Shown here one piece after another: positions 13,414-34,565 of a DNA stretch of 34,565 nt. The first letter of the stretch is position 1. Each line of letters starts with the position of its first letter. The translations under genes were made by a program, and so were the position numbers. The notes beneath the pieces were generated by a model that saw only the letters and a list, made by a program, of their open reading frames with translations, ran no database searches and was not told the origin of the DNA. The stretch is from a virus (lineage: Duplodnaviria; Heunggongvirae; Uroviricota; Caudoviricetes): the IMG/VR virus record IMGVR_UViG_2537562189_000007, one strand, 5' to 3'.

Positions 13414-13414
13414 T

Positions 13415-18172: not shown

Positions 18173-18181
18173 TATGTGATA

Positions 18182-18257: not shown

Positions 18258-18297
18258 GAGTGCAGGATAATAACGGTACGTAACTAATCCTGCAATA

Positions 18298-19492: not shown

Positions 19493-19516
19493 AAATAAAA
19501 AAGCCTTCATGACTGA
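19493..19516 (-). terminator. Intrinsic terminator after the 77-aa ORF
   Basis: Minus strand GCCTTCAgtcaTGAAGGC followed by TTTTTT. Confidence 0.45.
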
Positions 19517-19740
19517 AGGCGTCTGTAACAACCGAACTGATAGTCTGCCAGACCCGCCATAACAAGCTGGGTCAGTATTAACTGGCAGCGTTCGCGTGAA
19601 AGGTAAGTATTCTGCGCAATCTCCCCGACTGTCGCCGGTTCGGTGACGCTTAATTCATTAAACACCACTCTGGCGGTTTCGGTCATATCCTGCTGTTTCA
19701 GCATGTCTTTTTCCCTTTTCCGGTTAACGTGACACACCAA
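19507..19740 (-). CDS. Hypothetical small protein, possible winged-helix
   Basis: 77-aa ORF (likely start MLKQQDMTETARVVFNEL...) between the candidate tR' and the methyltransferase. Confidence 0.35.
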   Translation of the reverse strand: MVCHVNRKREKDMLKQQDMTETARVVFNELSVTEPATVGEIAQNTYLSRERCQLILTQLVMAGLADYQFGCYRRLQS

Positions 19741-19826
19741 TAACTCTTGTCAAAAAAGCCAGCAAGCTGAAAGACCGGTATTAATAACCACCTGCACATT
19801 TTATGTACTGGCGTGATTTCAGTCAT

Positions 19827-19851
19827 AAAAAAACCCGCCTGGCGACGGGTG
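19827..19851 (-). terminator. Candidate tR' intrinsic terminator
   Basis: Minus strand CACCCGTCGCCAGGCGGG followed by TTTTTTT, about 70 nt downstream of the candidate late promoter. Confidence 0.5.
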
Positions 19852-19896
19852 TAAAAATCTTCTAACGTCAGGCATAAAACGCCCATCGTTAGGGCA

Positions 19897-19924
19897 AATT
19901 TACCACAGATTCGGGAAAAATCAA
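19897..19924 (-). promoter_or_regulatory. Candidate late promoter pR' (with qut region)
   Basis: Minus strand TTGATT - 16 nt - TGGTAAATT (extended -10 like) directly downstream of the Q-like gene stop. Confidence 0.35.
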
Positions 19925-19929
19925 CAAAG

Positions 19930-20751
19930 CTATCTGGTCACCTTTTTCAGTTGTTGTTCTGCCCATGCTTCTTCAATATCAAACTGCACCACCAGCGTAT
20001 CGTAAAAACGTTTAACTGTTTTTTTCCATGTATCAAGAGATATGGCATCGGTTACATTACATATGGCATTAAATGCCTCCGTTGAAGGTAATCTTTCATA
20101 GCCACGCCCACCACAACGCTGGCAGTTTCTGAAAACCGGCACACCCTGTTTTTCCGACTCTTCACGATGAATGGCAACACCGCGCCCACGACAATCTTTA
20201 CAGGCGGTGGAAACCTCCCCCTTTCCGCCACACTCCGGACAGGCAACTTTTACCACCTCCCTGACTTTTTTCCATTCCTCCCAGTAAGACGGATACACGC
20301 CTTTTGTGCACTTTGCCCACACTGGCGGCTTACCATCCGGATACTGGATCTTGTTTGTAAAAACCTCGCTTTCAATAAATTTTTTTCCGTGACAGCAGGG
20401 GCACTGTTTTTTGCTCGCCGCGCTACGGGCATAATCTTCAAACGCATACGAAGCCATAATACGCATCACTGCCGGTTTTATTTCTGCCGGGAGTTTTCTT
20501 AACGCCGCCACGCGATCACACCGACTGAGTGCATATTCTGTCAGCAATTCTGTTGCCCGCTCTCTGTCATTCATACTAATGCCCATTCTCCCAAGGAACG
20601 CAGAAAACCCCATCTCAGCCCGATTCTGTGTCATGCCCTGCGCGGCCATCACATCAGTGATACTCAGCGCATCTTTTGACGTTGAGGCCGATGCATCAGT
20701 CAGGCCGGGGGATTTTGGGGAGTAGTATTTCGGTAAATCTTCCAGTTTCAT
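19930..20751 (-). CDS. Putative late antiterminator Q-like protein with DnaJ-type zinc-finger repeats
   Basis: 273 aa; position (after rusA and DUF968, before pR'/tR'-like elements and the late genes) matches Q; three CxxCxGxG repeats (CPECGGKG, CKDCRGRG, CQRCGGRG) plus CPCCHG. Confidence 0.55.
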   Translation of the reverse strand: MKLEDLPKYYSPKSPGLTDASASTSKDALSITDVMAAQGMTQNRAEMGFSAFLGRMGISMNDRERATELLTEYALSRCDRVAALRKLPAEIKPAVMRIMASYAFEDYARSAASKKQCPCCHGKKFIESEVFTNKIQYPDGKPPVWAKCTKGVYPSYWEEWKKVREVVKVACPECGGKGEVSTACKDCRGRGVAIHREESEKQGVPVFRNCQRCGGRGYERLPSTEAFNAICNVTDAISLDTWKKTVKRFYDTLVVQFDIEEAWAEQQLKKVTR

Positions 20752-21122
20752 TTTTTGACCTGCCCTTCAAGCATTATGGGGTAAATCTTCACCCCCAGAC
20801 GTCCACCAGATACTGGCTGACCACGTACAATATTGATTTCATCAAACTGTTCATCGTCGATAAGCAGTCCCGCATGCGTCAGCGCATCCAGCGGTGCTTT
20901 CAGAATGTTGTCCAGGTCACGACGACGCTTATCCGGTGGCTCTGCAATAATTTTTATTGCCAGCCGTCCGGACAGGCTTAATTTCAGTCGCTGCTGGCGA
21001 ACAATAAACGCCACTGCCCGGCGATAACGCTCCCCGGCTTTTGATACAAAATATGTGCTGCCACGACGTCGCCAGTAAGTATTCACCGTCGGCGGGTAAG
21101 GCAAAACAAACTCTATACACAT
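20748..21122 (-). CDS. rusA: Holliday junction resolvase RusA
   Basis: RusA-like sequence (LPYPPTVNTYW..., PPDKRRRDLDNILKAPLDALTHAGLLIDDEQ); ATG at 21122 preceded by AAGGGGGG. Confidence 0.8.
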   Translation of the reverse strand: MCIEFVLPYPPTVNTYWRRRGSTYFVSKAGERYRRAVAFIVRQQRLKLSLSGRLAIKIIAEPPDKRRRDLDNILKAPLDALTHAGLLIDDEQFDEINIVRGQPVSGGRLGVKIYPIMLEGQVKK

Positions 21123-21135
21123 CAATACCCCCCTT

Positions 21136-22185
21136 TTACCCAAGCACACCGGTTGCAAAGGCGTGATCAAGAAAACGAAAAATTAAATCAACCTGAGAAC
21201 CATGCTTTTCTTCGAACGCCAGCGGATCCGCATGAAGCTCGTTATGATGCTCCCGACACAGCGGTAGCGTGAAAATATCGTGGGCTTTTGTTCCCATTCC
21301 CCCCTGACCATGACCAATCAGGTGATGCGGATCGTCAGCTGGCTTACCACAACACGCACACGGCTGTGTCTTTACCCAGCGCGTGTATTTCTCATTAACC
21401 CAACGGCGATGTTTAGGCCGCTTCATAAACGATTCAGGAGACTCCGGATCAACGGCGATACTGGCAACCGTTTTTTTCTGTGGTGGATTTTGTTGCTGGT
21501 GGACGTGAAGTGGCAGCGCAATATTTTTTGTGCGCTGCTTCAGTATGCTGATGGCTGTCTGTTCTCCCGGTACGATGTCACTCTCACGGTATACGGAGCG
21601 GATTTTTTCCACCGGTAATCCCAGCGAACGACGCGCTACTGCCTCAGGTAGTGCATCCACCACCTGATTGCAGGCCGCCCACCAGGATAATTCGGCCAGC
21701 GATAACTCCCTCTCCTGCGTACCGTTTATTGCGTGACGTATAACATCAATCATCCAGACTGCCAGATTCTGCTGAGCAAGTTGATCGAGTGATTCTGATG
21801 TCTGGTCGCGCAGCTGGTTGTCACAGTGCCAGCACAACACCATCGCGCCGGTACCGTAACGGTGAATGACGGTTTCGCTGTGATGATAATCGCCGTGTGG
21901 CCACTGGCAGGATTTCACGTGACGTAATAACCAGTCAGACAGTGCACCTGCACCACCTGCTGCACGAATAACCCGCTCATCGCTGAAAAATGGCAGTAAT
22001 GTTTTATCCTCTGCCAGCGGCTGGCGAACGGCAGGAACGACTCCGGACGGCAGACCGCGCATGTTTTTCGGTTCCGGCTCCACCAATATTCTGCCGTTAT
22101 GGAATGCTGACATTGATTCACGGCCCGGCTTAAGGAGCACCATCCCGAGTTCCGGTACCAGAACAGGTCGAAGTAATACCCGCAC
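21136..22185 (-). CDS. DUF968-family phage protein with C-terminal HNH-like zinc motif
   Basis: 349 aa; C-terminus CACCGKPADDPHHLIGHGQGGMGTKAHDIFTLPLCREHHNELH; GTG start preceded by GGAGG. Confidence 0.6.
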   Translation of the reverse strand: MRVLLRPVLVPELGMVLLKPGRESMSAFHNGRILVEPEPKNMRGLPSGVVPAVRQPLAEDKTLLPFFSDERVIRAAGGAGALSDWLLRHVKSCQWPHGDYHHSETVIHRYGTGAMVLCWHCDNQLRDQTSESLDQLAQQNLAVWMIDVIRHAINGTQERELSLAELSWWAACNQVVDALPEAVARRSLGLPVEKIRSVYRESDIVPGEQTAISILKQRTKNIALPLHVHQQQNPPQKKTVASIAVDPESPESFMKRPKHRRWVNEKYTRWVKTQPCACCGKPADDPHHLIGHGQGGMGTKAHDIFTLPLCREHHNELHADPLAFEEKHGSQVDLIFRFLDHAFATGVLG

Positions 22186-22186
22186 G

Positions 22187-22519
22187 TTACCTCCAGATAC
22201 GCTGCTGGAATGTGCGGGACGGACGCGGTGGGCGTTCGGAATAAGGGAGCCTGACGGAGATTATCCAGTGACGACGATCGAAGCTGAGATCTTTCTGAAA
22301 CTCGTAACCACGTCTGCGGTAGCACTGGATCAGCCATTCGGCCTGTTCTTCAGTGCATGGGTCATGCTGGAACCAGTCAGATTTGAATGCATGAGAACGC
22401 CGCCCGTGCCTGCTGGCAGGGGCGGCGGAGTTATCCGAATTGTGTAATTTGGTATCTTGCGCCATCGGTTGTCTCTGCTGGCGCAGCAGGTGCCAGTTGT
22501 TCAGGCTGGCGTGCGGCAA
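22187..22519 (-). CDS. Hypothetical nin-region protein
   Basis: 110-aa ORF abutting the DUF968 gene; no confident motif. Confidence 0.35.
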   Translation of the reverse strand: MPHASLNNWHLLRQQRQPMAQDTKLHNSDNSAAPASRHGRRSHAFKSDWFQHDPCTEEQAEWLIQCYRRRGYEFQKDLSFDRRHWIISVRLPYSERPPRPSRTFQQRIWR

Positions 22520-22537
22520 TATTGTCTCTGATTTCTG

Positions 22538-22565
22538 TTGTCGTCAACAGGCAGCGTGCTATCAT
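22538..22565 (+). promoter_or_regulatory. Candidate sigma70 promoter for the parDE moron
   Basis: TTGTCG - 16 nt - TATCAT about 35 nt upstream of the ParD ATG. Confidence 0.3.
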
Positions 22566-22600
22566 CGAATAGTGTTCTATCCTACTCCGTGAGGTTTACC

Positions 22601-22858
22601 ATGCGTACAACCCAACAATTCAGCATTACATTAACTAACGAGATGGCTGACATGGTGCGCGCCCGTGTGGCTTCCGGTGCCTATGCTTCAGAAAGCGAGG
22701 TCATTCGTGAAGGGCTTCGCGCACTGAATGAGCGCGATAAAGCAATCGAAGCGTGGTTAACGCATTCAGCCGCCCCCTCTCTTGATTCTATCCGCGAAAA
22801 CCCAAACAACGGACGCTCCATTTCACAGGTTCGCGCCGCGATTCGATCCGGGAAGTAA
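22601..22858 (+). CDS. parD: ParD-family antitoxin (RHH)
   Basis: 85 aa from ATG 22601 (GAGG 6 nt upstream); FSITLTNEMADMVRARVASGAYASESEVIREGLRAL matches the ParD/COG3609 pattern. Confidence 0.75.
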   Translation: MRTTQQFSITLTNEMADMVRARVASGAYASESEVIREGLRALNERDKAIEAWLTHSAAPSLDSIRENPNNGRSISQVRAAIRSGK

Positions 22859-22863
22859 TCTGC

Positions 22864-23163
22864 ATGACATATGAAGTCATCATTACTCCTGAGGCCGAAC
22901 AACAAATAATCAACCTGCACAGATATATAACGGAGAAAGCAGGGAACATCATTGCTGACAATTATGCCAATGCGCTTCTTGATTATCTTGATGGGTTTTC
23001 TACATTCCCGCATCGGGGCAATAAACGCGATGATATTCGCCAGGGGATGCGGGTAACTCATTTCCGCCACAGAACGATTATTGCTTTTGCCGTTGATGGC
23101 AGAAAAGTCTTTATTGTCGGTATCTATCATGGTGGGCAAAGTTATGAAACCGATTTCTTATAA
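22864..23163 (+). CDS. parE: ParE/RelE-family toxin
   Basis: 99 aa, starts 5 nt after ParD stop; ParE-like sequence (VIITPEAEQQIINLHRYI...FIVGIYHGGQ). Confidence 0.75.
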   Translation: MTYEVIITPEAEQQIINLHRYITEKAGNIIADNYANALLDYLDGFSTFPHRGNKRDDIRQGMRVTHFRHRTIIAFAVDGRKVFIVGIYHGGQSYETDFL

Positions 23164-23244
23164 ACTTTTACCCACATCATTCCGGTGTTAGAATAAACCG
23201 TCTGCCCCTCTCTTACTGCGGATTCGTAGGCTATATAAATCAAA

Positions 23245-23278
23245 GATCCCGGCTCATGTTTGTGGCGGGATCTTTTTT
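23245..23278 (+). terminator. Intrinsic terminator after parE
   Basis: GATCCCG - 14-nt loop - CGGGATC followed by TTTTTT. Confidence 0.55.
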
Positions 23279-23285
23279 CGGCGAT

Positions 23286-23369
23286 TTATCCCCAGCGGCA
23301 AATCGAATACACCACCAGCGCCACCGCCATTGCAATACCAACATTTGAGAAGGCCTCAGGCCAGCTCAT
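23286..23369 (-). CDS. Small hydrophobic peptide (27 aa)
   Basis: ATG overlaps the DUF551 stop (caATGAgc) with AAGGAGG 7 nt upstream; MSWPEAFSNVGIAMAVALVVYSICRWG. Confidence 0.25.
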   Translation of the reverse strand: MSWPEAFSNVGIAMAVALVVYSICRWG

Positions 23370-23719
23370 TGGCGCACCTCCTTCGGCGGTTCTGGTAGCG
23401 GCATCCAGTGTGTGGCTTCACACACGATAGGCGCACCGAAACACTGCGCATACTGGAAGTCACCCGTATTATCCAGGTTAAAACCTGTAAACTGTTCACC
23501 CGTGCTGGACACAAACAGTAGTACATCAACACCAACTGGCGGCATTCGCTCACTACAGCTTATCCAACCATCCGGAGTTACCGGAGAATTGCCAGCCTTG
23601 CGCATGGCAATCTCCATGATTTCAACCATATCCCTTGGTGGAATTTTACAATGCTGACCAGTATGCTTCTGCTGCCTGGCATATTCGAGGATGTGCTCCA
23701 GCTTGATACGATTAATCAT
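23366..23719 (-). CDS. DUF551-family phage protein
   Basis: 117 aa ending ...CEATHWMPLPEPP, the characteristic DUF551 C-terminal pattern. Confidence 0.55.
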   Translation of the reverse strand: MINRIKLEHILEYARQQKHTGQHCKIPPRDMVEIMEIAMRKAGNSPVTPDGWISCSERMPPVGVDVLLFVSSTGEQFTGFNLDNTGDFQYAQCFGAPIVCEATHWMPLPEPPKEVRQ

Positions 23720-24069
23720 GATTTATCTCCCTGAAGCATGGCTTCGCGGCAGTCGTTCCAGCCTTCAGCATAATCACTATATGCAAGAGGCCAACCGTTT
23801 CTGTATTCACGCGGCAACTTACTAGGCACTGGCGGGGCGGCGTAAAGCTGGTGCGTTCCATCAGGCAGCGAGTGACCAACATACTCACCGAACCCGTCAA
23901 CACACATGCCCCCATCTTCAATAATACATGAAGCTACAGGCTTCGCTTCCAGCGATGCCAGCGCGATAAGCGCCAGCTCACGAATTTCACCGCCGTCTAT
24001 ATCGTCAATGTCATCGCGGCCAGAAATGTTAGCCAGCCATTGCAGTCGCTCTTTGGTAATAGTGGTCAT
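23716..24069 (-). CDS. Hypothetical phage protein
   Basis: 117-aa ORF translationally coupled to neighbours. Confidence 0.45.
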   Translation of the reverse strand: MTTITKERLQWLANISGRDDIDDIDGGEIRELALIALASLEAKPVASCIIEDGGMCVDGFGEYVGHSLPDGTHQLYAAPPVPSKLPREYRNGWPLAYSDYAEGWNDCREAMLQGDKS

Positions 24070-24070
24070 C

Positions 24071-24415
24071 TCACTCTCCTTCTATGCGAATACCAGCAGC
24101 AGTCAGTGCGGCATTGACCTCATCAGCGTAGTAGTACGTTAATCCACTTGATGATTTAGCCAGCTTGAATGGTTCTGGTAACTTCACTATGCGGGACTCC
24201 TGCTCGTCGATACGCTGTTTTGCTTCCTCCAGTTCATCCAGCAAATCAGCGATAATATCCACTTCACGATGACGGATTTCACGCTTAAACGCAGCCAAAG
24301 CTGCATCACAATCCTGCTCAGCGTTTGGACTGTCTGGTTTCTCCTGATACCACGCCAGCATCGACTGATAGTTTTGTGCCGCCTCACGCAGCGCCTGATA
24401 ATTAATCCCACTCAC
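24071..24415 (-). CDS. Hypothetical coiled-coil protein
   Basis: GTG at 24415 preceded by AGGAGG; ORF track start 24442 would overlap the DUF4406 gene. Confidence 0.4.
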   Translation of the reverse strand: MSGINYQALREAAQNYQSMLAWYQEKPDSPNAEQDCDAALAAFKREIRHREVDIIADLLDELEEAKQRIDEQESRIVKLPEPFKLAKSSSGLTYYYADEVNAALTAAGIRIEGE

Positions 24416-24707
24416 TGGTTGCCTCCTGGAAAATAACTGCATGCCCCAGTTTCTCCGCCAGTGCCAGTTCTGCCTTAGCGCCTGCCGACCGCTGCCAGCC
24501 TTTCAGCATATAAACCGCATCCACACAACGAATCATTGCCATGCAAATATCCATGTAATGTGGCTGAGTCAGCCCGTCCGGAAGTACTGACGGGTTTAAA
24601 ACGGTATGCCCTTCCCGTTTCAGTGCTTCTTCCGCCTTGTGAAATGCCTCGCGGTTGAAATTTTCATATCCCGTCATTGGACCGGCGATATAAATTCTCA
24701 CCCTCAC
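24402..24707 (-). CDS. DUF4406 / nucleoside 2-deoxyribosyltransferase-like protein
   Basis: 101 aa, VRIYIAGPMTGYENFNREAF... pattern; GTG start preceded by AGGAGGG. Confidence 0.55.
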   Translation of the reverse strand: MRVRIYIAGPMTGYENFNREAFHKAEEALKREGHTVLNPSVLPDGLTQPHYMDICMAMIRCVDAVYMLKGWQRSAGAKAELALAEKLGHAVIFQEATSEWD

Positions 24708-24958
24708 GCCTGAACCCTCCTGTCGAAATAAACGTAGTTATTCACTATGCGCAGCGGCATGCCTAATTTTCTGGCAATTTCCCTTCTTTGCATGCCTCTC
24801 TGATGCAGTTGCCGCGCCTGCTCAATATCACGCTGAGAATATTTTGCTGACTGGTGAAAATCACCACGTAACATCATGCTGATGCCCAACTCCCGTGCCT
24901 TCGTTCTCACTGCCGCTTCAGTTCGTCCGATAAGTGCGCCAATGCTTTTTACCTTCAT
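24704..24958 (-). CDS. Small HTH DNA-binding protein
   Basis: Internal ATG 24958 (MKVKSIGALIGRTEAAVRTKARELG...RREIARKLGMPLRIVNNYV), two HTH-like segments. Confidence 0.4.
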   Translation of the reverse strand: MKVKSIGALIGRTEAAVRTKARELGISMMLRGDFHQSAKYSQRDIEQARQLHQRGMQRREIARKLGMPLRIVNNYVYFDRRVQA

Positions 24959-25017
24959 TGTTCCCGCGCACTGCCGGAGTATCAGAATTTCAGCCCGGCA
25001 CCACGTCTTCCACCCAC

Positions 25018-25734
25018 TCACCGCTGCTGTTCTCTGGTGGCGGTAATATCCCGGAGAATATCCCGGCACTTGTTCAGCTCCCGCAGCGCGGCGCAGACTC
25101 GCTCCCACTTCTGAACCTGACCTTTTGCCCGGCGCAGCTCGCGGTTAGCCACATGCAGCGATGGTAGAATCAGGTCATCTGCTTTCGTTTCGGTGACCGA
25201 TGGCTGTAACTTCACAATGTCTTCCACGATTTCTGTTTTCATTTCTTCCTGTGTCGTCGTTTCCTGGACTGGTAACGCAACACCTGCTGGCTGAGGAAAG
25301 GCTTTACCATCGGTTTCCGCTACGGATGCAGCTTCCGGCTCTGCCGGTAAATCAGCGCCCGGTATGCAGTAACGAAATTTACCGCCCTGATTTACGCGAA
25401 TCAGACGCCCTTTGCTGATTGCCATGGCCAGCGATGAATTCGCCCGGCGGGAGGTAATCCCGAACATAAGTGCCAGCTCATCCGCCGTTTGTGGGCCATG
25501 TTGTTCAATCGCCTCAGTCAGCATTTGCGCTGTCACTTTCGGTACCGGTGACACTGGTTCACTTTCACCTGCCTGAGTCAGCCACCACATCGACCCCTTG
25601 TTATCCGCTTCACCACGGCGCTTCAGTTTCCACAGTTCGTTGACCGCATCTTCACGGCTGATTCCAAGGCGGGCCGCCACTACCTGTGAAGAGGCTCTTT
25701 TCAGTGCTTTCAGTGCGTCAAATACGGTTTCCAT
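25018..25734 (-). CDS. Hypothetical phage protein with N-terminal winged-helix-like region
   Basis: ATG 25734 preceded by GGAGGAAA ([31 protein letters not shown]...); C-terminal coiled coil. Confidence 0.45.
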
Positions 25735-25767
25735 TAAAATTTCCTCCGACAAAATCGTTTCCCAGAT

Positions 25768-26430
25768 TCAAATAAAACCAGCAGCCTTCCGGCGTTCGTA
25801 TTCCTGTTTCAGCCGTTCAATTGGCGTTGGCCCTTGCGGGTGTTTCGCCCCTTCCAGTTGTCGTCGCACTGGCGGAACACTCATCCCGTTACCAACATGC
25901 TTTGCCCATTTCGTCAGTTGCCGTTCCGCAAGTCGTTTTAACTCACCCTGCGTCATCTGGCGCTCAATCCCTCTGGTACGCATTTCGAGGCAGATGTGGT
26001 ACAGCACAGGCTGTGGCCACGGGTATTTATCACTCCCGTCGTATCGCCAGGATTCATTGCGCCAGCGCCGGTACTCTTCCATCACGGCATCCACCGTAAG
26101 ACCAAATGGATTTGCCCCACTCTCCGAAATCAGTGCAACAAACTCAGCCAGGTCCGGGGGCCACGTTTCACCCGCCCGGCAGCGGTCCATGCACTGACGG
26201 CAGACCAGACGGATTTGCTGTTCAGTCATCGCACCAATCTGGGCAATCCAGAGCTTCGAAGGTGCGGCCCCGTTCTTCTGAGTCCAGCGGTTCGAATACA
26301 CCTCCCCCATAAGCTCCCACAGCTTCCAGGCCGTTTCCGTTGCTGATAAATCCGTTGTCACGTTCCCACTGTTCGCGTGCTGCCCGGATTTCCTGAACTG
26401 CCCGTGATGCCGTGCCACCTGATGCTGCAT
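25768..26430 (-). CDS. Replication protein P-like (helicase loader)
   Basis: 220-aa ORF downstream of the O-like gene with lambda P-like segments (YPWPQPVLYHICLEMRTRGIERQMTQGELKRLAERQ); start uncertain because the first ~70 codons overlap the O-like gene. Confidence 0.55.
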   Translation of the reverse strand: MQHQVARHHGQFRKSGQHANSGNVTTDLSATETAWKLWELMGEVYSNRWTQKNGAAPSKLWIAQIGAMTEQQIRLVCRQCMDRCRAGETWPPDLAEFVALISESGANPFGLTVDAVMEEYRRWRNESWRYDGSDKYPWPQPVLYHICLEMRTRGIERQMTQGELKRLAERQLTKWAKHVGNGMSVPPVRRQLEGAKHPQGPTPIERLKQEYERRKAAGFI

Positions 26431-27259
26431 GGCTTACCCCCTTGCTGACTGGTTTTACCTGTGCCCAGACGTGCTGCACGTGACGGGCAAATTTCTGCTC
26501 CCACTGAACCTGCGTGAAAACCTTCCCCTCTGCCATCCAGTAATCCCGGAATGCGGCAAGCTCAGCAGGTGTAAATTCCGGCTCAGGCAGAGCCATACCC
26601 CACACTGCTGCCCGTTGTCGAAAATCCGGCGACGGCTGCCAGACAGTAGTCATCGAAAATTTCCCGATGGGTTCGCTCAGGCCGTCCAGGTATTCAGGTT
26701 CGGCTGTCTGCAACGGCGCACCATTCGACTCACTGGTCGGAATACTCTCGCGCGCGTTATGTGTGGGGTTTAATTCTGTATCTGTATCTTTATCTGTCGT
26801 GACTTGTCGTGACAGATGCGTGACACGTCGTGACTCATCGTGACAATCAGCATTATGTTTCCGCAGCTTTTCCCGCTCCCGCTGCGCTCTCTTACGCTCT
26901 GCCGGGGATTTTGCCGTTTGCGAAACGTTACCATTGTCCTCTTTCAGCACCTGACGTTTTTCCCATCCGGAAATAAGGTCACCATCCAGAACCCGCCCCT
27001 GCATTGCATGCAAAATTGAATCAATTACGTCTTCCGTCACATCAAGCGCACTTGCTAAATCTTCCGTCGTGACATCAATGTGACCACGTAGTGACACGCC
27101 GTGACATGTCGTGACATTTCGTGACGCGCTCACCAGAAGGTGGATATACACTGCCATCACTGTTGCGATTGGCTGTCCTGATACCCTGGCAATCGTTCGC
27201 CACTTGGGGTCATTTGGCATGTCATGCCACAATCTGAGCCAGGCATTAGCCATACTCAC
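26222..27259 (-). CDS. Replication initiator (lambda O-like), carrying ori-type iterons
   Basis: 345 aa at the O position after ydaS/ydaT-like genes; two arrays of CGTGAC direct repeats at helical periodicity inside the coding sequence. Confidence 0.55.
   Translation of the reverse strand: MSMANAWLRLWHDMPNDPKWRTIARVSGQPIATVMAVYIHLLVSASRNVTTCHGVSLRGHIDVTTEDLASALDVTEDVIDSILHAMQGRVLDGDLISGWEKRQVLKEDNGNVSQTAKSPAERKRAQREREKLRKHNADCHDESRRVTHLSRQVTTDKDTDTELNPTHNARESIPTSESNGAPLQTAEPEYLDGLSEPIGKFSMTTVWQPSPDFRQRAAVWGMALPEPEFTPAELAAFRDYWMAEGKVFTQVQWEQKFARHVQHVWAQVKPVSKGVSHAASGGTASRAVQEIRAAREQWERDNGFISNGNGLEAVGAYGGGVFEPLDSEERGRTFEALDCPDWCDD
26777..26844. repeat. Iteron array 1 (5 x ~10.4-bp CGTGAC repeats) with adjacent tctgta repeats
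   Basis: CGTGAC ends at 26803, 26813, 26824, 26834, 26844; preceded by tctgtatctgtatctttatctg. Confidence 0.6.
27044..27124. repeat. Iteron array 2 (6 x GTGAC repeats plus one inverted copy)
   Basis: GTGAC ends at 27072, 27083, 27094, 27104, 27114, 27124 (spacing 10-11 bp); inverted CGTCAC at 27044..27049. Confidence 0.6.
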
Positions 27260-27321
27260 CTCTTCTGATACCGAACTTTACCCACGAACTTCCGGAAGAA
27301 ATCCGGTATAAATATTGTTGG

Positions 27322-27747
27322 TCAATGCACAACAACTGCATTACCAGGCTGACCACCACTGTTAGTCAGGGTGCCCCAGGCGATCGCTACAGCGACAAAA
27401 TCATCCACATCTTTCACCAGCCGATCCCGTCGTTCGACGATCTCCCGGTAATATTCAGAACTGTGACTGCGCATACGGGCCACCAGCAAAGGCGGCATCG
27501 CCTTTTCGATCGCCGGTAACAGCGCCTGAATTTTTTCAACAGCATCAGACGTGTCCTTCTCCACCCAGCGGAAAATTTTCTGGGTATTACGAGCCAGGGC
27601 TTCCGGATGGCTGTCGTCGTACAGTTCCGGGAACGTCATCCCCAGCTCGAAATAAATCCGGGCTATTTCAGCTGCGGGAACTTTCTCACCATCAGGATGT
27701 GCCCAGGCATTCATCGCCATGCGGATGTGTTCATGCTTGATTTTCAT
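27322..27747 (-). CDS. ydaT: YdaT-like regulator
   Basis: 141 aa beginning MKIKHEHI and ending VVVH, resembling Rac YdaT as recalled; downstream of ydaS-like gene. Confidence 0.65.
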   Translation of the reverse strand: MKIKHEHIRMAMNAWAHPDGEKVPAAEIARIYFELGMTFPELYDDSHPEALARNTQKIFRWVEKDTSDAVEKIQALLPAIEKAMPPLLVARMRSHSSEYYREIVERRDRLVKDVDDFVAVAIAWGTLTNSGGQPGNAVVVH

Positions 27748-27750
27748 GAA

Positions 27751-28032
27751 TCAACCTCCATCAGCCTTTTTGGTGTTAAGTTCATATTTGTGACGTGAAG
27801 GGGACGTGATTCCAGTGTATTCGGGCCATATAAGCTCCCAGTCATTAGGTCTCAATTCTCGTCTTGTAACATGTCCTCCAGTTTCTGCTTCTATCATCAA
27901 CGCACGAACAGGAGACACAGGTGAAGTTCCAGATGCCATTTGGGACAAGAAAGACGGAGACACACCAAGATTGGTCGCAAATTTTTTTGCTTCTCCAGTT
28001 TTTAATGATTTGATGAATTCCTTTAGCGTCAT
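27751..28032 (-). CDS. ydaS: YdaS-like Cro-type HTH regulator
   Basis: 93 aa with HTH and ...GHVTRRELRPNDWELIWPE; first gene of the rightward operon, divergent from the repressor genes. Confidence 0.65.
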   Translation of the reverse strand: MTLKEFIKSLKTGEAKKFATNLGVSPSFLSQMASGTSPVSPVRALMIEAETGGHVTRRELRPNDWELIWPEYTGITSPSRHKYELNTKKADGG

Positions 28033-28067
28033 AATTTTTATCTCAGCACATTTAGAACAAGTAAAAG

Positions 28068-28095
28068 TTTATACACAACTAAATAAACCAGTCAA
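28068..28095 (-). promoter_or_regulatory. Candidate pR-like promoter for ydaS, overlapped by an inverted-repeat operator
   Basis: Minus strand TTGACT - 16 nt - TATAAA; inverted repeat GTTTAT(N10)ATAAAC at 28067..28088 covers the -10 and spacer. Confidence 0.45.
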
Positions 28096-28099
28096 GTAT

Positions 28100-28128
28100 T
28101 TGCTTATTTTGCGATTACTAAAGATAAT
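28100..28128 (+). promoter_or_regulatory. Candidate pRM-like promoter giving a leaderless repressor mRNA
   Basis: TTGCTT - 17 nt - GATAAT; predicted start ~7 nt downstream coincides with the A of the ATG at 28135; no SD sequence. Confidence 0.4.
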
Positions 28129-28134
28129 GTATGT

Positions 28135-28506
28135 ATGGAAACAAAAGAGATTCGGCGTTTACGCCTCAAAGAGTGGTTCAAAGACAGGACTTTGCCGCCT
28201 AAAGAGAAAAGTTACTTATCTCAGTTAATGAGCGGTAAAGCTACGTTTGGCGAAAAGGCAGCTAGACGTATTGAACAAACATATGGGATGCCTGGGGGAT
28301 ATCTTGATATTGAACCAGAAGACATAACAGAGTCTCCATCATCAAGATCTATAGCATTAACCCCTAACCAATTAGAATTGCTACAAATATTTAGTGCTTT
28401 CCCTGATAATGAGCAGCAGGAGATCATAAAAGAACTAAAAAACAAAAAAGAGGCTATGGAAGATCTTGTCGCACGTTGGTTGGCACGACAAGGTCGCCGA
28501 GCCTGA
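28135..28506 (+). CDS. HTH repressor-like protein, paralog of the downstream PaaR2-like regulator
   Basis: 123 aa; N-terminal HTH; C-terminal 45 aa (LTPNQLELLQIFSAFPDNEQQEIIKELKNKKEAMEDLVARWLA) closely parallels the C-terminus of the next gene. Confidence 0.6.
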   Translation: METKEIRRLRLKEWFKDRTLPPKEKSYLSQLMSGKATFGEKAARRIEQTYGMPGGYLDIEPEDITESPSSRSIALTPNQLELLQIFSAFPDNEQQEIIKELKNKKEAMEDLVARWLARQGRRA

Positions 28507-28525
28507 CGGGATATATAGATATCAG

Positions 28526-28987
28526 ATGGGCGTACTCGAAATTAGTGCTCTTAGAATTAAGATGCTTCTATTGGCAAAAGGCTGGAGCCAAGCAGGACTT
28601 GCGCGCAGAATTGGTATTGCTCAACAATCCGTGCAACGGTGGGTTTGTGGTATCTCAAGCCCTACGGCAGCTAATCTAGATAAACTATCTGAAGTAACGG
28701 GACTTCCTCAGTATTGGTTTTTCTTACCATTAAATGAAGAAAAAAAAGACAGGGCACAGGATATATTAAAAATAACCCCTAATCAAAAGGAACTACTTCA
28801 AACATTTGAGGCATTTCCAGAGGAAGATCAACAGCAAATGCTTAAAGATATGAAGGAGAAAAAAGAAGCAATGGATCGTATAGTTGCAAGGTGGTTAGCA
28901 GCACAACAAAAAGTCAACCAAGCAGAATACCAGCACTTACAAAACGAGGTTCACCATGAACACAGCCCTTTCACCGATGGTTTCTGA
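28526..28987 (+). CDS. paaR2: PaaR2-like HTH transcriptional regulator
   Basis: Internal ATG 28526 (MGVLEISALRIKMLLLAKGWSQAGLARRIGIAQQSVQRWV...); directly precedes the antitoxin-toxin pair, as in three-component paaR-paaA-parE systems. Confidence 0.65.
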   Translation: MGVLEISALRIKMLLLAKGWSQAGLARRIGIAQQSVQRWVCGISSPTAANLDKLSEVTGLPQYWFFLPLNEEKKDRAQDILKITPNQKELLQTFEAFPEEDQQQMLKDMKEKKEAMDRIVARWLAAQQKVNQAEYQHLQNEVHHEHSPFTDGF

Positions 28988-29147
28988 ATTTGAAACTGTC
29001 GAGCAAGAAAACAGTTACAACGAATGGCTGCGTGCGAAAGTAGCAGCGAGCCTTGCAGATCCGCGCCCAGCAATTCCCCATGACGAGGTTGAGCGTAGAA
29101 TGGCAGAACGCTTTGCTAAAATGCGCAAGGAACGGAGTGAGCAGTAA
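28956..29147 (+). CDS. paaA2: PaaA2-like antitoxin
   Basis: 63 aa (MNTALSPMVSEFETVEQENSYNEWLRAKVAASLADPRPAIPHDEVERRMAERFAKMRKERSEQ), GAGG RBS; stop overlaps toxin start (TAAATG). Confidence 0.7.
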   Translation: MNTALSPMVSEFETVEQENSYNEWLRAKVAASLADPRPAIPHDEVERRMAERFAKMRKERSEQ

Positions 29148-29435
29148 ATGTTACCCGTGTTATGGCTTGAAAGCGCAGATACCGACTTGGATGATATAAC
29201 CAGCTATATTGCACGCTTTGACATAGATGCGGCAGAACGTTTATGGAAACGCTTAAGGACTTGCGTTCAGCCATTATCTGAGCATCCGTATTTATACCCG
29301 CCAAGTGACAGAGTGCCAGGTTTGCGTGAAATTGTAGCTCACCCCAATTACATTATTCTGTACCGAGTGACAATTTCAGGCATTGAAATTGTTAACGTAG
29401 TTCACGCCCGCCGACAGTTCCCTGTAACACCTTAA
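29148..29435 (+). CDS. parE2: ParE-family toxin (ParE2-like)
   Basis: 95 aa with ParE/RelE-like features (LPVLWLESADTDLDDITSYIARFD...IVNVVHARR). Confidence 0.75.
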   Translation: MLPVLWLESADTDLDDITSYIARFDIDAAERLWKRLRTCVQPLSEHPYLYPPSDRVPGLREIVAHPNYIILYRVTISGIEIVNVVHARRQFPVTP

Positions 29436-29452
29436 TCCCCCTAAAGCAAAAC

Positions 29453-29482
29453 CTTCCCCCTCTCAAGAGGGAGGGTTATTCC
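29453..29482 (+). terminator. Possible intrinsic terminator after parE2
   Basis: C-rich/G-rich hairpin (ccttccccctc tcaa gagggaggg) followed by ttatt; weak U-tract. Confidence 0.3.
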
Positions 29483-29627
29483 CGCCCATCAGTTAAGTTA
29501 GATATTGACCGTTTAGTTTATTTTTGTATAAACTAATTTCACCAACCCACCCTGCCCCACAGAACGCCAGGCAATACTTCGAGTTACCCGGCAGTGGTCA
29601 GGGGTTAAGTAGCCAGCCCGAGGCGTA

Positions 29628-29656
29628 TGAACATGACGGCGGGAACACTTTATATA
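29628..29656 (+). promoter_or_regulatory. Candidate sigma70 promoter
   Basis: TGAACA - 17 nt - TATATA, about 55 nt upstream of the 50-aa ORF. Confidence 0.3.
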
Positions 29657-29712
29657 ACAGCGCAGCAGGTTTTTAGTTCCGCGCCCCGGCGTTAAGGGGA
29701 AATGAGGTCAAC

Positions 29713-29865
29713 ATGGATACGCTCAATCTTGGCAACAACGAATCTCTGGTATGCGGTGTGTTCCCTAACCAGGACGGCACGTTTACCGCGATGACGTATA
29801 CCAAAAGTAAAAAGTTTAAAACCGAAGCTGGCGCGCGTCGCTGGTTAGCCAGAAACACTAACTGA
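29713..29865 (+). CDS. Hypothetical small protein (50 aa)
   Basis: ATG with GAGG 5 nt upstream; MDTLNLGNNESLVCGVFPNQDGTFTAMTYTKSKKFKTEAGARRWLARNTN; not in the ORF track. Confidence 0.3.
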   Translation: MDTLNLGNNESLVCGVFPNQDGTFTAMTYTKSKKFKTEAGARRWLARNTN

Positions 29866-30354
29866 TTAGCACCAGTAAAAACAGGTTGCCACTGGTTAAT
29901 TTACCCTGAAAAGTCAGGGCATAACACGAAAGCGCACGGCGAAGTTCGTATATCTGTACGGCGTCGTTAAATTTTCTTCGACCGTGCACTTCCGGTTGTG
30001 GCAATCCGCGAAATGGCGCGGCGGTAAGTATGGCTGGGGTTTCCTCCATTGCTCCAGAAAATGCACCGGGTTGTCAGGTTGACCATACGCTTAAGTGACA
30101 GCCCCGCCACAATACCCATGTGTAGTCTTTGGTGGCATCAGTTCTACTCCGTGACTGCTCTGCCACCCTTTTTAAAGTGAATTTTGTGATGCGGTGAATG
30201 CGGCTAAGCGCACGCGGAACAGTTAAAACCGTAAAGTGGTCTTTTACTGGCGTAACAGACATCAACTAACAATCCGGCGTTAATTGTTAACTGGTTAACG
30301 TCACCTGGAGGCACCAGGCACCACATCACAAAATTCATTGTTGAGGACGCGATA

Positions 30355-30543
30355 ATGGAAACGTCACTACCAAACGTTAATACGTCTGAAGGGTGTTTTA
30401 ATATTGGTATTCTGCTCAGTAACCGGGAGTTTACTGAGGACGCCATCAGGATGAGAAAATATGAGCCTTATCTTCTCAATGATAATTCCATACTCTCCAG
30501 AATTGCCCTTCTTGAACTTGGCATTTTCGGAGGGCAGCAGTGA
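30355..30543 (+). CDS. Hypothetical small protein (62 aa)
   Basis: ATG with GAGGA RBS; stop overlaps the next gene's GTG (GTGA). Confidence 0.35.
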   Translation: METSLPNVNTSEGCFNIGILLSNREFTEDAIRMRKYEPYLLNDNSILSRIALLELGIFGGQQ

Positions 30544-30728
30544 GTTCAGCGTTTGCACTGATGATGACGGTTTTTCTTATAACAGGTGAGCCACAGAATG
30601 TGATTACCGGAATTTATGCCAGTAAAGGATCCTGCCTCCAGGCAAGAGACGAGCAAAAAATTTCTGGTGAATGTCTCCCGTTAAACAAAGTATCGCTGTA
30701 CCTGAATAACGAAACACCGGCTGGATAA
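30540..30728 (+). CDS. Hypothetical small protein with hydrophobic N-terminus
   Basis: GTG start preceded by GGAGGG; MSSAFALMMTVFLITG... then two Cys (signal-peptide-like). Confidence 0.4.
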   Translation: MSSAFALMMTVFLITGEPQNVITGIYASKGSCLQARDEQKISGECLPLNKVSLYLNNETPAG

Positions 30729-30823
30729 CCCACCAGCCATATTAACGCCATACCAACGGATTAAAAATGCCAGCAATGGCAGGGATTCGTTCACCCTGAA
30801 ATCTGTAATGAGGTTTAAACACA

Positions 30824-33259
30824 ATGAGTAAAATATTTATTTGCGCCGCCATTCCTGACGAACAGGCAATAAAAAACGAGGGCGCTGTTGCTGTGGCCAC
30901 TGCCATTAAAGCCGGTGATGAACGTCGCGCCCGCGCAAAATTTCACTGGCAATTCCTTGAACATTATCCGGCTGCTCAGGACTGCGCTTATAAATTTCTT
31001 GTCTGTGAGGATAAACCCGGTACACACCGCCCAGCCCTCGACTCCTGGGATGCTGAATATATGCTGGAAAACCGCTGGGATGAGGAGTCTGCTTCCTTTG
31101 TCCCGGTTGAGACTGAATCAGATCCTATGAACGTCACTTTTGACAAGCTGTCCCCTGAAGTACAGAACGCTGTCATGGTTAAGTTCGATACATGTGAAAA
31201 CATCACCGTTGATATGGTGATTAGCGCACAGGAATTGTTGCAGGAAGACATGGCAACCTTCGACGGACATATCGTTGAAGCGTTGATGAAAATGCCAGAA
31301 GTTAACGCCATGTATCCGGAGATTAAACTGCATGCCATCGGGTGGGTTAAGCATAAATGTAAGCCTGGTGCCAAATGGCCAGAAATTCAGGCAGAGATGC
31401 GCATCTGGAAAAAACGTCGCGAAGGTGAACGCAAGGAAACCGGAAAATACACGTCTGTTGTTGATCTCGCCCGCGCCAAAGCCAATCAACAGTACACTGA
31501 AAATTCAACAGGAAAAATCAGCCCGGTCATTGCTGCCATTCATCGCGAATACAGGCAGACATGGAAAACACTGGATGACGAACTGGCCTACGCTCTCTGG
31601 CCTGGTGATGTGGATGCCGGAAACATTGACGGCAACATCCATCGCTGGGCAAAAAAAGAAGTTATCGACAACGACCGCGAAGACTGGAAGCGTATCTCGG
31701 CATCAATGCGCAAACAACCTGATGCACTTCTATACAGCCGTCAGACTATTTTCGGCCTTGTTCGTGAACGTCCGATCGACATTCATAAAGATCCCGTGGC
31801 GCTGAACAAATACATCACTGAATACCTGACTACAAAGGGCGTATTTGAACATGAAGAAACAGACCAGAGCCCTGCTGATGCTCTCCACCTGTCAGCAGAA
31901 CAAACTGATTCAGTGGAGACGGCAGAATCCGATACTCAAAAAAATGAAATCCTGGTGGAAGCTGAACCATCTGTAGAGCGTGAAGGGCCTTTTTATTTCG
32001 TCTTTACCGATAAGGACGGGGAAAAATACGGTCGCGCAAACAAACTTTCTGGTCTGGACAAGGCGCTGGCTGCCGGGGCTACTGAAATCACGAAAGAAGA
32101 ATATTTTGCCCGCAAAAACGGCACATACACGGGCTTACCGCAAAATACAGATATATCTGAACATTCAGAACAACCAGAGCCGGTAAAAGTTACCGCTGAC
32201 GAAGTAAACAAAATTATGCAGGCAGCCAATATCAGCCAGCCTGACTCCGATAAGTTGCTTGCTGCATCACGTGGTGAGTTTGTTGAAGGGATTAGCGACC
32301 CGAATGATCCGAAATGGGTGAAGGGGATTGAAACCTGCGATTCTGTGAACCAGAACCAGTCAGAAACGGAACAGAACGACCAAAAAGCGGAACAAAACAG
32401 CCCAAATGCGTTACAAGACGAGCCAGAAACGAAACAATCCGAACCAGTAGCGCAACAGGAAGAGGAAAAAGTCTGTACCGCCTGCGGTCAGAGCAGTGGC
32501 GGCAACTGCCCTGATTGTGGCGCGGTGATGGGCAACGCAACCTACCAGGAAACACTCGATGAAGAAAATCAGGCTGCAGCTCAGGAGGAAATGGAAGGCT
32601 CTGGCGGCGATCACTACCACACCACAGATAATGAAAGTGGCGAGACAGCAAATCCCTTAATTAAGGTGAACGGTCATCGTGAAAGCACATCCACCAGCAG
32701 GTTGTGGCACCATCTGATGATTGACCTTGAAACAATGGGCAAAAATCCTGATGCCCCAATAAACGCTCTGGCCGGTAAGTTTTTTGATCCGGCAACCGGA
32801 GAGATGGGGCCAGAATTCAGCAAAACTATCGATCTGGAAACCGCAGGCGGAGTCATCGATCGGGACACCATTAAGTGGTGGCTGAAACAGTCACGGGAAG
32901 CACAATCAGCCATTCTGACCGATGAAATCCCGTTGGATGACGCACTGTTGCAATTACGGGAATTTATCGACGAAAACTCCGGTGAATTTTTTGTTCAGGT
33001 CTGGGGAAATGGAGCCAACTTCGACAACGTGATTTTACGCCGTTCATATGAACGGCAGGAGATCCCCTGCCCGTGGCGTTACACCAATGATCGTGATGTA
33101 AGAACGATTGTTGCCCTGGGGCTGGTGATGGATTTCGATGCTCGAAGTGTCATCACATTTGAGGGTGAACGCCATAATGCCCTGCACGATGCGCGTTACC
33201 AGGCAAAATACGTTTCAGCTATCTGGCAAAAACTGTTCCCGAATCAGGCTGATTTTTAA
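30824..33259 (+). CDS. Multidomain exonuclease with C-terminal DnaQ-like (DEDDh) 3'-5' exonuclease domain
   Basis: 811 aa; C-terminal ~180 aa carry Exo I (LMIDLETMG), Exo II (VWGNGANFDNVIL) and Exo III (HNALHDARYQAKY) motifs; upstream acidic linker and a Cys4 cluster (CTACGQSSGGNCPDCG); occupies the recE/exo position of the early-left operon. Confidence 0.75.
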   Translation: MSKIFICAAIPDEQAIKNEGAVAVATAIKAGDERRARAKFHWQFLEHYPAAQDCAYKFLVCEDKPGTHRPALDSWDAEYMLENRWDEESASFVPVETESDPMNVTFDKLSPEVQNAVMVKFDTCENITVDMVISAQELLQEDMATFDGHIVEALMKMPEVNAMYPEIKLHAIGWVKHKCKPGAKWPEIQAEMRIWKKRREGERKETGKYTSVVDLARAKANQQYTENSTGKISPVIAAIHREYRQTWKTLDDELAYALWPGDVDAGNIDGNIHRWAKKEVIDNDREDWKRISASMRKQPDALLYSRQTIFGLVRERPIDIHKDPVALNKYITEYLTTKGVFEHEETDQSPADALHLSAEQTDSVETAESDTQKNEILVEAEPSVEREGPFYFVFTDKDGEKYGRANKLSGLDKALAAGATEITKEEYFARKNGTYTGLPQNTDISEHSEQPEPVKVTADEVNKIMQAANISQPDSDKLLAASRGEFVEGISDPNDPKWVKGIETCDSVNQNQSETEQNDQKAEQNSPNALQDEPETKQSEPVAQQEEEKVCTACGQSSGGNCPDCGAVMGNATYQETLDEENQAAAQEEMEGSGGDHYHTTDNESGETANPLIKVNGHRESTSTSRLWHHLMIDLETMGKNPDAPINALAGKFFDPATGEMGPEFSKTIDLETAGGVIDRDTIKWWLKQSREAQSAILTDEIPLDDALLQLREFIDENSGEFFVQVWGNGANFDNVILRRSYERQEIPCPWRYTNDRDVRTIVALGLVMDFDARSVITFEGERHNALHDARYQAKYVSAIWQKLFPNQADF

Positions 33260-33325
33260 TGTTCAACCCATATCGCCGCCCACCAGCTATAGTGGCGGCG
33301 GTCATGCTGTAAGGCACGTGACCAC

Positions 33326-33577
33326 ATGTACGAATTAACTCTATCGCCAGCAGAAATTCAAGAGATCACGAGATACGAACGGTATACAAAACAGCAACAA
33401 CAGTTAAGGTTGCACGGTATCCCATTTGTACCCGGTCCTAAAAACGAACCAATAGTTCTTCGCAGTGATGTCCCGCGCGGACTGACTGCGATACCGAAAG
33501 TATCTGAACTGGTTTCTGCTGACCCCGATTTTGAGGCGCTGAACAATGGGAAGACCAAGAAAAAACAAAAAAGATAA
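33326..33577 (+). CDS. Excisionase-like protein
   Basis: 83-aa basic protein immediately upstream of and overlapping int. Confidence 0.45.
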   Translation: MYELTLSPAEIQEITRYERYTKQQQQLRLHGIPFVPGPKNEPIVLRSDVPRGLTAIPKVSELVSADPDFEALNNGKTKKKQKR

Positions 33578-34565
33578 TGCACTACCGCCACGTGTTAGAT
33601 CGAATGGTTACAGTTACGTATGGAAACCCGAAGGAAGCACAAAAACTATAGGGCTCGGAAGAGTGCGGGAAACCACCATAGCTAAAGTCTGGCAGAATTA
33701 TGAACTGGAAAAAGCAAAACGCCACAACATAATGACCGTCGCTAAATTATGGCACATGTTTATGGATTCCCCCGCATTTACAGAACTGGCCCCCAGAACC
33801 CAAAAAGATTATCGGCAACATCAGAGGGCGTTGCTGGCAGTCTTCGGAAAAGTACTGGCTGATAATGTAAAAATTGAGCAGGTAAGAATTTTCATGGATA
33901 AACGGGGGATTGAGAGCAAGACCCAGGCAAACCATGAACTGGCAAGTCTCAGTCGTGTATACGGGTGGGGATATGAACGTGGATATGTGAAGAATAACCC
34001 ATGCAAAGGAGTCAGGAAATTTACGCTTAAAGCCCGCACTGTTTACATCACAGATGAACAGTATGCGGCGATATATGCGGAAGCAATACCACAGTTACGC
34101 ATTGCAATGGAGATATCCTATCTTTGTGCGGCAAGACTCGGTGATGTGCTCGAGCTGAAATGGCAGGATATTATGGATAAAGGGATCTACATTGAGCAAA
34201 ACAAGACCGGCACCAAACAAATCAAGGAATGGTCTCCACGATTACGAACCGCGATCCAGTTAGCCAGAAATGTATCTTCAGGCACATGTGAATATGTGAT
34301 CAACACAACCAAGGGCGGGAAGGTCATAGCTAAAACGCTAAACAACTGGTGGAACCAAGCTAAACACGCAGCCGAGAAAAAATCCGGCGTCCCGTTTGGG
34401 TGCAATTTCCATGACATAAAAGCCAAAGGGATATCAGATTACGAAGGAAGCAGTCGCGACAAACAGATTTTCAGTGGACATAAAACAGAAAATCAGGTGT
34501 TGATTTATGATCGTAAAACAAAAATCACGCCGACACTGGATTTGCCACTTGTGGTCAGCAAGTAG
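33546..34565 (+). CDS. int: Tyrosine integrase (complete)
   Basis: 339 aa with a tyrosine-recombinase C-terminal catalytic region (CNFHDIKAKG..., GHKTENQVLIYDRK with candidate catalytic Tyr); stop codon is the last triplet of the window. Confidence 0.85.
   Translation: MGRPRKNKKDNALPPRVRSNGYSYVWKPEGSTKTIGLGRVRETTIAKVWQNYELEKAKRHNIMTVAKLWHMFMDSPAFTELAPRTQKDYRQHQRALLAVFGKVLADNVKIEQVRIFMDKRGIESKTQANHELASLSRVYGWGYERGYVKNNPCKGVRKFTLKARTVYITDEQYAAIYAEAIPQLRIAMEISYLCAARLGDVLELKWQDIMDKGIYIEQNKTGTKQIKEWSPRLRTAIQLARNVSSGTCEYVINTTKGGKVIAKTLNNWWNQAKHAAEKKSGVPFGCNFHDIKAKGISDYEGSSRDKQIFSGHKTENQVLIYDRKTKITPTLDLPLVVSK

Follow-up and report, generated by a model that had tools for sequence, protein, structure and literature searches.

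The window described here is the whole of a 34,565-nucleotide (nt) stretch of viral DNA (Caudoviricetes; IMG/VR record IMGVR_UViG_2537562189_000007). Its 811-amino-acid (aa) exonuclease gene is the intact version of E. coli K-12 ydfE; it closes the dicBF early-left operon of a lambdoid prophage of the Qin/Tritos type. Judged by its sequence, the product is no novel large protein but a scaffold of RecE type whose nuclease domain has been exchanged: where RecE has a PD-(D/E)XK nuclease, this protein ends in a DEDDh 3'-5' exonuclease domain most like that of T4 DexA. No annealing protein accompanies it, and the element is rich in correctly oriented Chi sites, as in the phage class typified by Tritos. 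A role for the nuclease at DNA ends during host-mediated recombination is proposed tentatively below.

Scaffold and nuclease domains

The gene and its parts lie on the strand shown (+), as follows:

30824..33259, +: full-length ydfE-type exonuclease gene (ATG start, 811 aa), RecE/YdfE scaffold plus DEDDh domain, matching phrog_2082 over its full length
30824..31591, +: head, residues 1-256 (YdfE_N region)
31655..32662, +: RecE-like middle, residues ~278-613 (BLASTP to Rac RecE 293-591, E 3e-44)
32474..32518, +: Cys4 zinc-ribbon-like cluster C551/C554/C562/C565 (CxxC-x7-CxxC; weak Pfam DZR match, E 0.034)
32708..33226, +: DexA-like DEDDh 3'-5' exonuclease domain, residues 629-801 (PF16473)

The nearest E. 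coli match is in strain ST130 (99.3% nt identity), where a coding sequence of the same length (2436 nt) is labelled "exonuclease"; the identical protein (P0001) was found on 584 public contigs. Precomputed Pfam matches for P0001 assign it to PF27430 (YdfE_N) and PF27432 (YdfE_C). Residues 1-256 are 94% identical to K-12 YdfE (b1577), a pseudogene of the Qin prophage interrupted by IS2E after codon 256. In the AlphaFold2 model this head consists of an alpha/beta subdomain (~1-95) and a helical subdomain (~103-204).

The middle region is long and in part disordered. It contains a helical YdfE_C-type domain (to ~340), two conserved islands, GPFYF..GRANK (~386-435) and DKLLAASRGEF..DPNDPKWVKGI (~474-503), and acidic low-complexity linkers. 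Identity to Rac RecE reaches 45% over residues 474-613, which include DPNDPKWVKGI and the Cys4 ribbon; the cysteines are kept in RecE (CNACGQTGGDNCPDCG), and the segments flanking them here are rich in D/E and in Q/N/S/T. The NCBIfam RecE equivalog model (PRK09709) aligns by its positions 271-600 to residues 246-611, scoring 219 bits against a cutoff of 1269. The homology ends at RecE residue 591, at the start of the PD-(D/E)XK domain, which has been crystallised as 606-866 (PMC11611040). Since it stops at RecE's catalytic boundary and the C-terminus is of DEDDh type, the protein appears to be a RecE/YdfE scaffold in which the catalytic domain was exchanged. Head and middle remain conserved across genera, down to ~30-50% identity.

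The C-terminal domain matches the Rv2179c-like family PF16473 from end to end (profile positions 1-177 of 177; E 2.7e-60, 203.5 bits against a cutoff of 27). Exo I is represented by D634 and E636, Exo II by D734 and Exo III by H784-x4-D789; in an alignment with stand-alone homologues these catalytic residues are invariant in 43-44 of 44. PF16473 was the only C-terminal domain found by a Pfam scan at E <= 1, which gave no match to PF12684, the RecE-type PD-(D/E)XK family. A profile of the domain family, searched against the Protein Data Bank (PDB), matched T4 DexA (8KEL) at E 1.5e-22, the next best being DnaQ and oligoribonuclease at ~1e-4. DexA is a 3'-5' DNA exonuclease, and its homologues are commonest in Escherichia, among them EcD of E. 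coli, reported to protect against T4 by digesting 5-hydroxymethylcytosine (5hmC) DNA (PMC12153337). That the window protein has 3'-5' exonuclease activity thus seems fairly secure from its motifs; DNA is taken as the probable substrate because the closest characterised relative is DexA.

These results bear out much of what the original prediction, made from the bare sequence, had reported: a DnaQ-like DEDDh domain with all of its motifs at the C-terminus, whose DEDD fold the profile searches confirm, and upstream of it an acidic low-complexity linker and a Cys4 cluster, located at residues 551-565 with D/E-rich flanks. The ~600 N-terminal residues had been called unassignable, which no longer holds: they belong to YdfE_N and YdfE_C, and their second half is RecE-like.

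Two more specific assignments were considered and dropped. Membership of the HREX/EcD type was rejected by comparison with the residues given in PMC12153337. The equivalent of DexA W152 is T754 in both HMMER alignments (29 of the 44 stand-alone homologues have W or Y there); the tetramerisation residue D90, an alanine in EcD, is retained as D705/D706; and for D169 no single equivalent emerges, the two alignments giving D770 and V768. The PADLOC models gave no match for the protein. The ISG20/TONDO exonuclease described in a preprint belongs to a different DEDDh clade.

Operon context and search for an annealing partner

The exonuclease gene is the last before xis-int in an operon with the order dicF-dicB-ydfD-exo-xis-int:

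29713-29865: ydfA-like DUF1391 gene
30117..30168, +: DicF small RNA (sRNA) of this dicBF early-left operon (Rfam RF00039; 61 bits, with 48 as gathering score)
30355..30543, +: dicB, cell-division inhibitor (Pfam DicB, E 7e-34)
30540..30728, +: ydfD-like DUF1482 gene, directly upstream of the exonuclease gene (Pfam DUF1482)
33326..33577, +: excisionase (phrog_1266, E 1e-19)
33546..34565, +: tyrosine integrase (homologue annotated tyrosine-type recombinase/integrase; the open reading frame (ORF) ends at the window's last base)

The same gene order is found in K-12 Qin, E. coli ST130, the phages HannyBb, vB_EcoS-640R1 and Tritos, and a RecE-head variant from strain 377323_2f, and recT or bet is absent from all of these operons. 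Within the window, every sizeable ORF from 11.8 kb to the end was scanned against PHROG and Pfam, and no Bet, RecT, Erf, Sak, Rad52, single-stranded DNA-binding protein (SSB), Gam or Abc2 turned up. What the scans did find were repressors, Cro, CII-like and O-/P-like replication proteins, nin-region genes, an HNH/DUF968 protein, RusA, Q, a methyltransferase, lysis genes and terminase. The gene therefore does occupy the recE/exo position, directly upstream of xis-int, and does lack an annealing partner, the small upstream ORFs included, as first proposed. That the missing partner is a departure from the norm is not upheld: the arrangement is present in ~63% of complete E. coli genomes and corresponds to the Tritos type described below (PMC12315714).

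Other features of the window deserve brief mention. Two nin-region ORFs on the - strand are of doubtful status as genes, 22681-23139 (152 aa) with no PHROG or Pfam match and 21915-22337 (140 aa) with no PHROG match. The stretch that separates the immunity region from the dicBF genes holds a paaA2/parE-like module on the + strand, with a PaaA2-type antitoxin at 28956-29147 (PF21217, E 1e-20) and a ParE toxin at 29148-29435 (PF05016, E 1e-16). Just upstream are two tandem ORFs, 28135-28506 and 28466-28987, both matching phrog_5736; the second has a Pfam HTH_3 domain and the first is without a Pfam match. Tandem regulators with PaaA2 and ParE make up an arrangement that resembles the three-component paaR2-paaA2-parE2 module of O157 prophages. 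The late region at 15195-18257 (- strand) resembles that of a Shiga toxin (Stx) phage, without room for stx; it has three tRNA genes (18009-18257), two tandem copies of the STnc100 sRNA (17398-17606 and 17668-17872) and a 658-aa NanS-p-like esterase (DUF1737, SASA and DUF6645).

Chi sites and the Tritos class

The window contains 14 Chi octamers, against 1.49 expected and a maximum of 4 in 100 dinucleotide-preserving shuffles. They are biased in orientation (11:3). Terminase and head genes lie on the - strand, which makes this the top strand of the lambda map, and the eleven Chi on it are in the active orientation:

13371, 13857, 19471, 19989, 23312, 27480, 30730, 32691 and 33280, -: nine Chi in the right arm, from the lysis genes to int (span 13371..33287)
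6567 and 11492, -: the other two - strand Chi
16944, 18657 and 21495, +: opposite-strand Chi
32691..32698, -: the one of these nine that lies in the scaffold-nuclease linker, reading GCTGGTGG on the - strand, at codons S623-T624-S625

Two others of the nine, at 30730 and 33280, flank the exonuclease gene. A - strand Chi lies inside the homologous gene in all four loci checked, L001 (13868), L002 (9904), L006 (6545) and L007 (8517), at an offset from the gene start that is identical in L001 and similar in L002, L006 and L007. A recombination hotspot of this kind at the junction of scaffold and nuclease could have promoted the exchange of effector domains. No Chi was found in the Rac recET arm or the K-12 Qin fragment examined.

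These features have a published counterpart. In a survey of 325 lambdoid phages (Zheng, Casjens, Davidson, Amundsen and Smith, Genome Res 2025; PMC12315714), 22% of 314 Enterobacteriales phages are without a Rec module and are rich in correctly oriented Chi; growth of one of them, LLS, a Chi-rich lambdoid phage without any Rec-module gene (class A), is aided by RecBCD. Table 1 of the same paper lists a "Tritos" type of four phages with a nuclease and neither a single-strand annealing protein (SAP), an SSB nor an anti-RecBCD function, and with Chi numbers (top/bottom strand) that range between 21/6 and 7/2. Rec modules of one or two genes are called "somewhat suspect" there.

Over its full length the Tritos nuclease (gp27, 823 aa) shares 86% identity with the window protein, and we count nine top-strand and two bottom-strand Chi in Tritos. 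The type is characterised by a nuclease as sole Rec-module gene and at least four Chi in active orientation; the window has the nuclease only, and eleven such Chi. From the nuclease-only module, the Chi richness and the match to Tritos together it follows that the window is a Tritos-type prophage. The missing annealase is a known property of a class that apparently relies on host RecBCD-Chi-RecA. Seen as sequence the gene is not new: it is extremely common and annotated, Pfam has families for it, and in 2025 it was listed as the one Rec-module gene that Tritos-type phages carry.

Distribution and domain combinations

Matches with at least 80% gene coverage and 80-99% nt identity are present in 3441 of 5426 complete E. 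coli genomes (~63%), at up to 10 places per genome. The gene is also carried by the plaque-forming phages HannyBb, Tritos, mEp460 and PhiR42_1. PGAP labels it "exonuclease", "3'-5' exonuclease" or "3'-5' exoribonuclease"; in several phage records it appears as exodeoxyribonuclease VIII, a misnomer as regards the catalytic domain.

To survey the wider family, 1.84 billion representative proteins were searched exhaustively with HMMER. Together with Pfam and PHROG scans this gave the following combinations:

YdfE-type head + DEDDh: the window protein, P0121
RecE-type PF06630 head + DEDDh: P0124, P0126, P0134, P0137, P0138 and others
RecE-type head + PD-(D/E)XK: Rac RecE, P0154
YdfE-type head + PD-(D/E)XK: P0140
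YdfE-type head + a ~290-aa domain without Pfam annotation: P0136, P0143, P0144, P0193

Proteins of this last kind are frequent in prophages of Klebsiella, Salmonella, Enterobacter and Citrobacter, under the mistaken name exodeoxyribonuclease VIII. Structural comparison supports a Rad52-fold annealase as their effector, the sequence searches being negative or weak: phmmer and profile searches against PDB sequences gave no Rad52 match, and an hhalign comparison with an approximate human RAD52 sequence was collinear at a weak E of 0.026. Scaffold and effector are thus freely combined, two head types occurring with at least three effector types (5'-3' nuclease, 3'-5' nuclease and annealase). P0130 (702 aa) has a fourth C-terminus on the YdfE scaffold, of ~250 aa, with only a phrog_26058 match and no Pfam match.

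The RecE-head variant of E. coli 377323_2f (L007, 6669-9085) combines a RecE-type head with DEDDh and is annotated as frameshifted; it adjoins rspB, the K-12 Qin attachment site. It occupies the same dicB-DUF1482-exo-xis-int slot, which indicates that both head types circulate in the same operon context, with occasional decay.

Possible roles of the exonuclease

The original prediction had suggested action in recombination, anti-defence or host takeover. As a list this was too open to test, but the recombination part stands up better than the rest, since both the Chi enrichment and the other domains fused to the scaffold speak for a role in recombination or at DNA ends. The reading preferred here, tentatively and at somewhat short of an even chance, is that the protein is a 3'-5' DNA exonuclease processing phage DNA ends as an accessory to host RecBCD-Chi-RecA recombination. 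It would be a Mg2+-dependent enzyme, brought by its RecE-type scaffold to the places where RecE acts, at the ends of phage DNA and at intermediates of recombination or replication; this targeting is suggested by the sharing of the scaffold with RecE and with the Rad52-fold effector. Because an annealase, an SSB and a RecBCD inhibitor are absent and correctly oriented Chi abundant, phage concatemers would be made through host RecBCD-Chi-RecA recombination. The exonuclease might trim 3' tails or flaps, leaving ends and joints usable by RecBCD, RecA or polymerase. It would then be an accessory end-processing enzyme, cooperating with RecBCD, and not half of an exo/annealase pair.

Several points weigh against this proposal. 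The E. coli genome averages about one Chi per 4.5 kb, so that the Chi enrichment, ~9-fold over shuffled sequence, is by estimate from this average only ~2-fold over the host genome. Lambda-type cos ends, with their 5' overhangs, already admit RecBCD, and a need for 3'-end trimming is not obvious; a search of the window for a lambda-like cos sequence gave no convincing match. The YdfE-type head is without a recognisable fold relative, and for that reason a targeting role for this head is something we purely infer. An RNA substrate is possible, the Pfam family being named after an exoribonuclease. Host 3'-5' exonucleases usually inhibit recombination (PMC12315714). Among the ydfE papers listed, several of which concern a same-named Bacillus gene or are unrelated, there was no study of what the gene does, and literature on PF16473 and on Rv2179c with phage yielded no functional study either.

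A broader version of the proposal, which we consider rather doubtful, makes the RecE/YdfE scaffold a general adaptor that brings interchangeable DNA-end effectors (PD-(D/E)XK nuclease, DEDDh nuclease or Rad52-fold annealase) to a single site in infected cells, the DEDDh form being a phage-encoded RecBCD-Chi accessory that edits 3' ends. With 3' ends so prepared, a Chi-rich phage without its own recombinase could run recombination-dependent replication. If true, phage and host would be cooperating in recombination in a new way, and this would give the N-terminal two-thirds of RecE a first function.

Other explanations were weighed. The gene could encode a nuclease for superinfection exclusion or defence, of the sort known from HREX/EcD, which would spare unmodified DNA, digest incoming modified-cytosine DNA such as that of T-even phages, and so add to exclusion by DicB. 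The DexA match of the DEDDh profile (E 1.5e-22) would suit this, as would EcD's protection against T4 through 5hmC-DNA digestion and the frequency of DexA homologues in Escherichia (PMC12153337); the gene is moreover very widespread in E. coli prophages, defective ones included, as expected of one that benefits the lysogen. Yet the residues that define the class are not matched (W152 is replaced by T754, D90 is kept as D705/D706, and D169 has no clear equivalent), and no PADLOC model recognises the protein. In K-12 the dicBF operon is repressed by DicA, and given this repression the early-left operon is probably silent in the lysogen. The 600-aa RecE-type scaffold would also go unexplained, and the A78-equivalent position suggests that EcD is a short stand-alone protein. 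On balance this explanation is unlikely. That the gene is functionless or in decay, a RecE-like relic which recombination has deprived of its true nuclease and RecT partner, seems highly improbable. The K-12 copy is indeed an IS2-truncated pseudogene, one RecE-head variant is frameshifted, and small Rec modules have been called "somewhat suspect" (PMC12315714). Against this, the reading frame is intact over 811 codons, its close matches extend to 3441 genomes and to four plaque-forming phages, its catalytic residues are invariant, and its head and middle are conserved across genera.

An anti-defence or host-takeover nuclease appears quite unlikely. Such an enzyme would degrade host nucleic acid with a free 3' end during lytic growth, for example retron multicopy single-stranded DNA (msDNA), reverse-transcriptase products, or host DNA or RNA, and the exchange of nuclease domains would reflect an arms race with defence sensors. 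There is a precedent in Rac RecE, which degrades retron msDNA and thereby triggers the retron toxin/antitoxin, an activity described as an anti-restriction function (bioRxiv 10.1101/2020.06.22.160242). The founding member of the Pfam family is, by its name, an exoribonuclease, and frequent swapping of effectors on one scaffold is typical of conflict systems. However, the other effectors on the scaffold, the RecE nuclease and the Rad52-fold annealase, have classical recombination functions. Degradation of host DNA is not known from lambdoid phages. The correlation with Chi richness likewise points to recombination (PMC12315714).

What that role is would matter beyond this element. The gene is one of the commonest in E. 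coli prophages, yet is without an assigned role, and it is the sole candidate recombination gene in a Chi-rich lambdoid class thought to live off host RecBCD; knowing its role would test that model and explain why exonucleases that normally oppose recombination sit in recombination modules. Specialists have called it "curious" (PMC12315714). The N-terminal part of RecE has no function assigned (PMC11611040), and work on the present protein might reveal the purpose of those 560-600 residues, with a bearing on RecET direct-cloning technology. To what was already catalogued, the present analysis adds the identity of the gene as full-length ydfE, the boundary of the swap relative to RecE, the combinations of heads and effectors including the supported Rad52-fold annealase, the failure of the EcD signature, and the Chi enrichment of the window element.

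Comparison with known systems

Rac RecE shares with the window protein the middle region, the DPNDPKWVKGI island and the Cys4 ribbon, and its gene occupies the same lambdoid early-left slot. It differs in having a PF06630 head, a 5'-3' nuclease domain of PD-(D/E)XK type and an adjacent RecT, whereas the window protein has a YdfE-type head and a DEDDh 3'-5' domain, and is followed by xis-int. For the C-terminal domain the closest solved structure by sequence is T4 DexA (8KEL), with all DEDDh catalytic residues in common. DexA (227 aa) and EcD appear to be single-domain proteins, whereas the window domain is the tail of an 811-aa protein, which reproduces neither the 5hmC-reading signature nor the "dimer-only" signature of EcD. 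The host enzymes ExoI, ExoX and the epsilon subunit belong to the same catalytic superfamily and have the polarity expected of the window domain. The similarity to these DnaQ-superfamily enzymes is distant (E ~1e-4 to the DnaQ and Orn structures), and they have no RecE-type scaffold; host 3'-5' exonucleases generally counteract recombination (as cited in PMC12315714).

The K-12 Qin prophage has the same operon, ydfA-...-dicF-dicB-ydfD-ydfE-(int), with a ydfE that the IS2E cut has left without the middle region of the scaffold and without the nuclease domain. The closest counterpart overall is Tritos. The text of Zheng et al., in the part available, gives no scaffold/effector architecture for its nuclease (PMC12315714). 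Like the window, Tritos has the order int-xis-exo-ydfD-dicB-DicF, a nuclease-only module, and a Chi-rich genome with strand bias (9:2, against 11:3 in the window). The window differs from it in being a prophage copy with different immunity and late regions; nothing essential differs.

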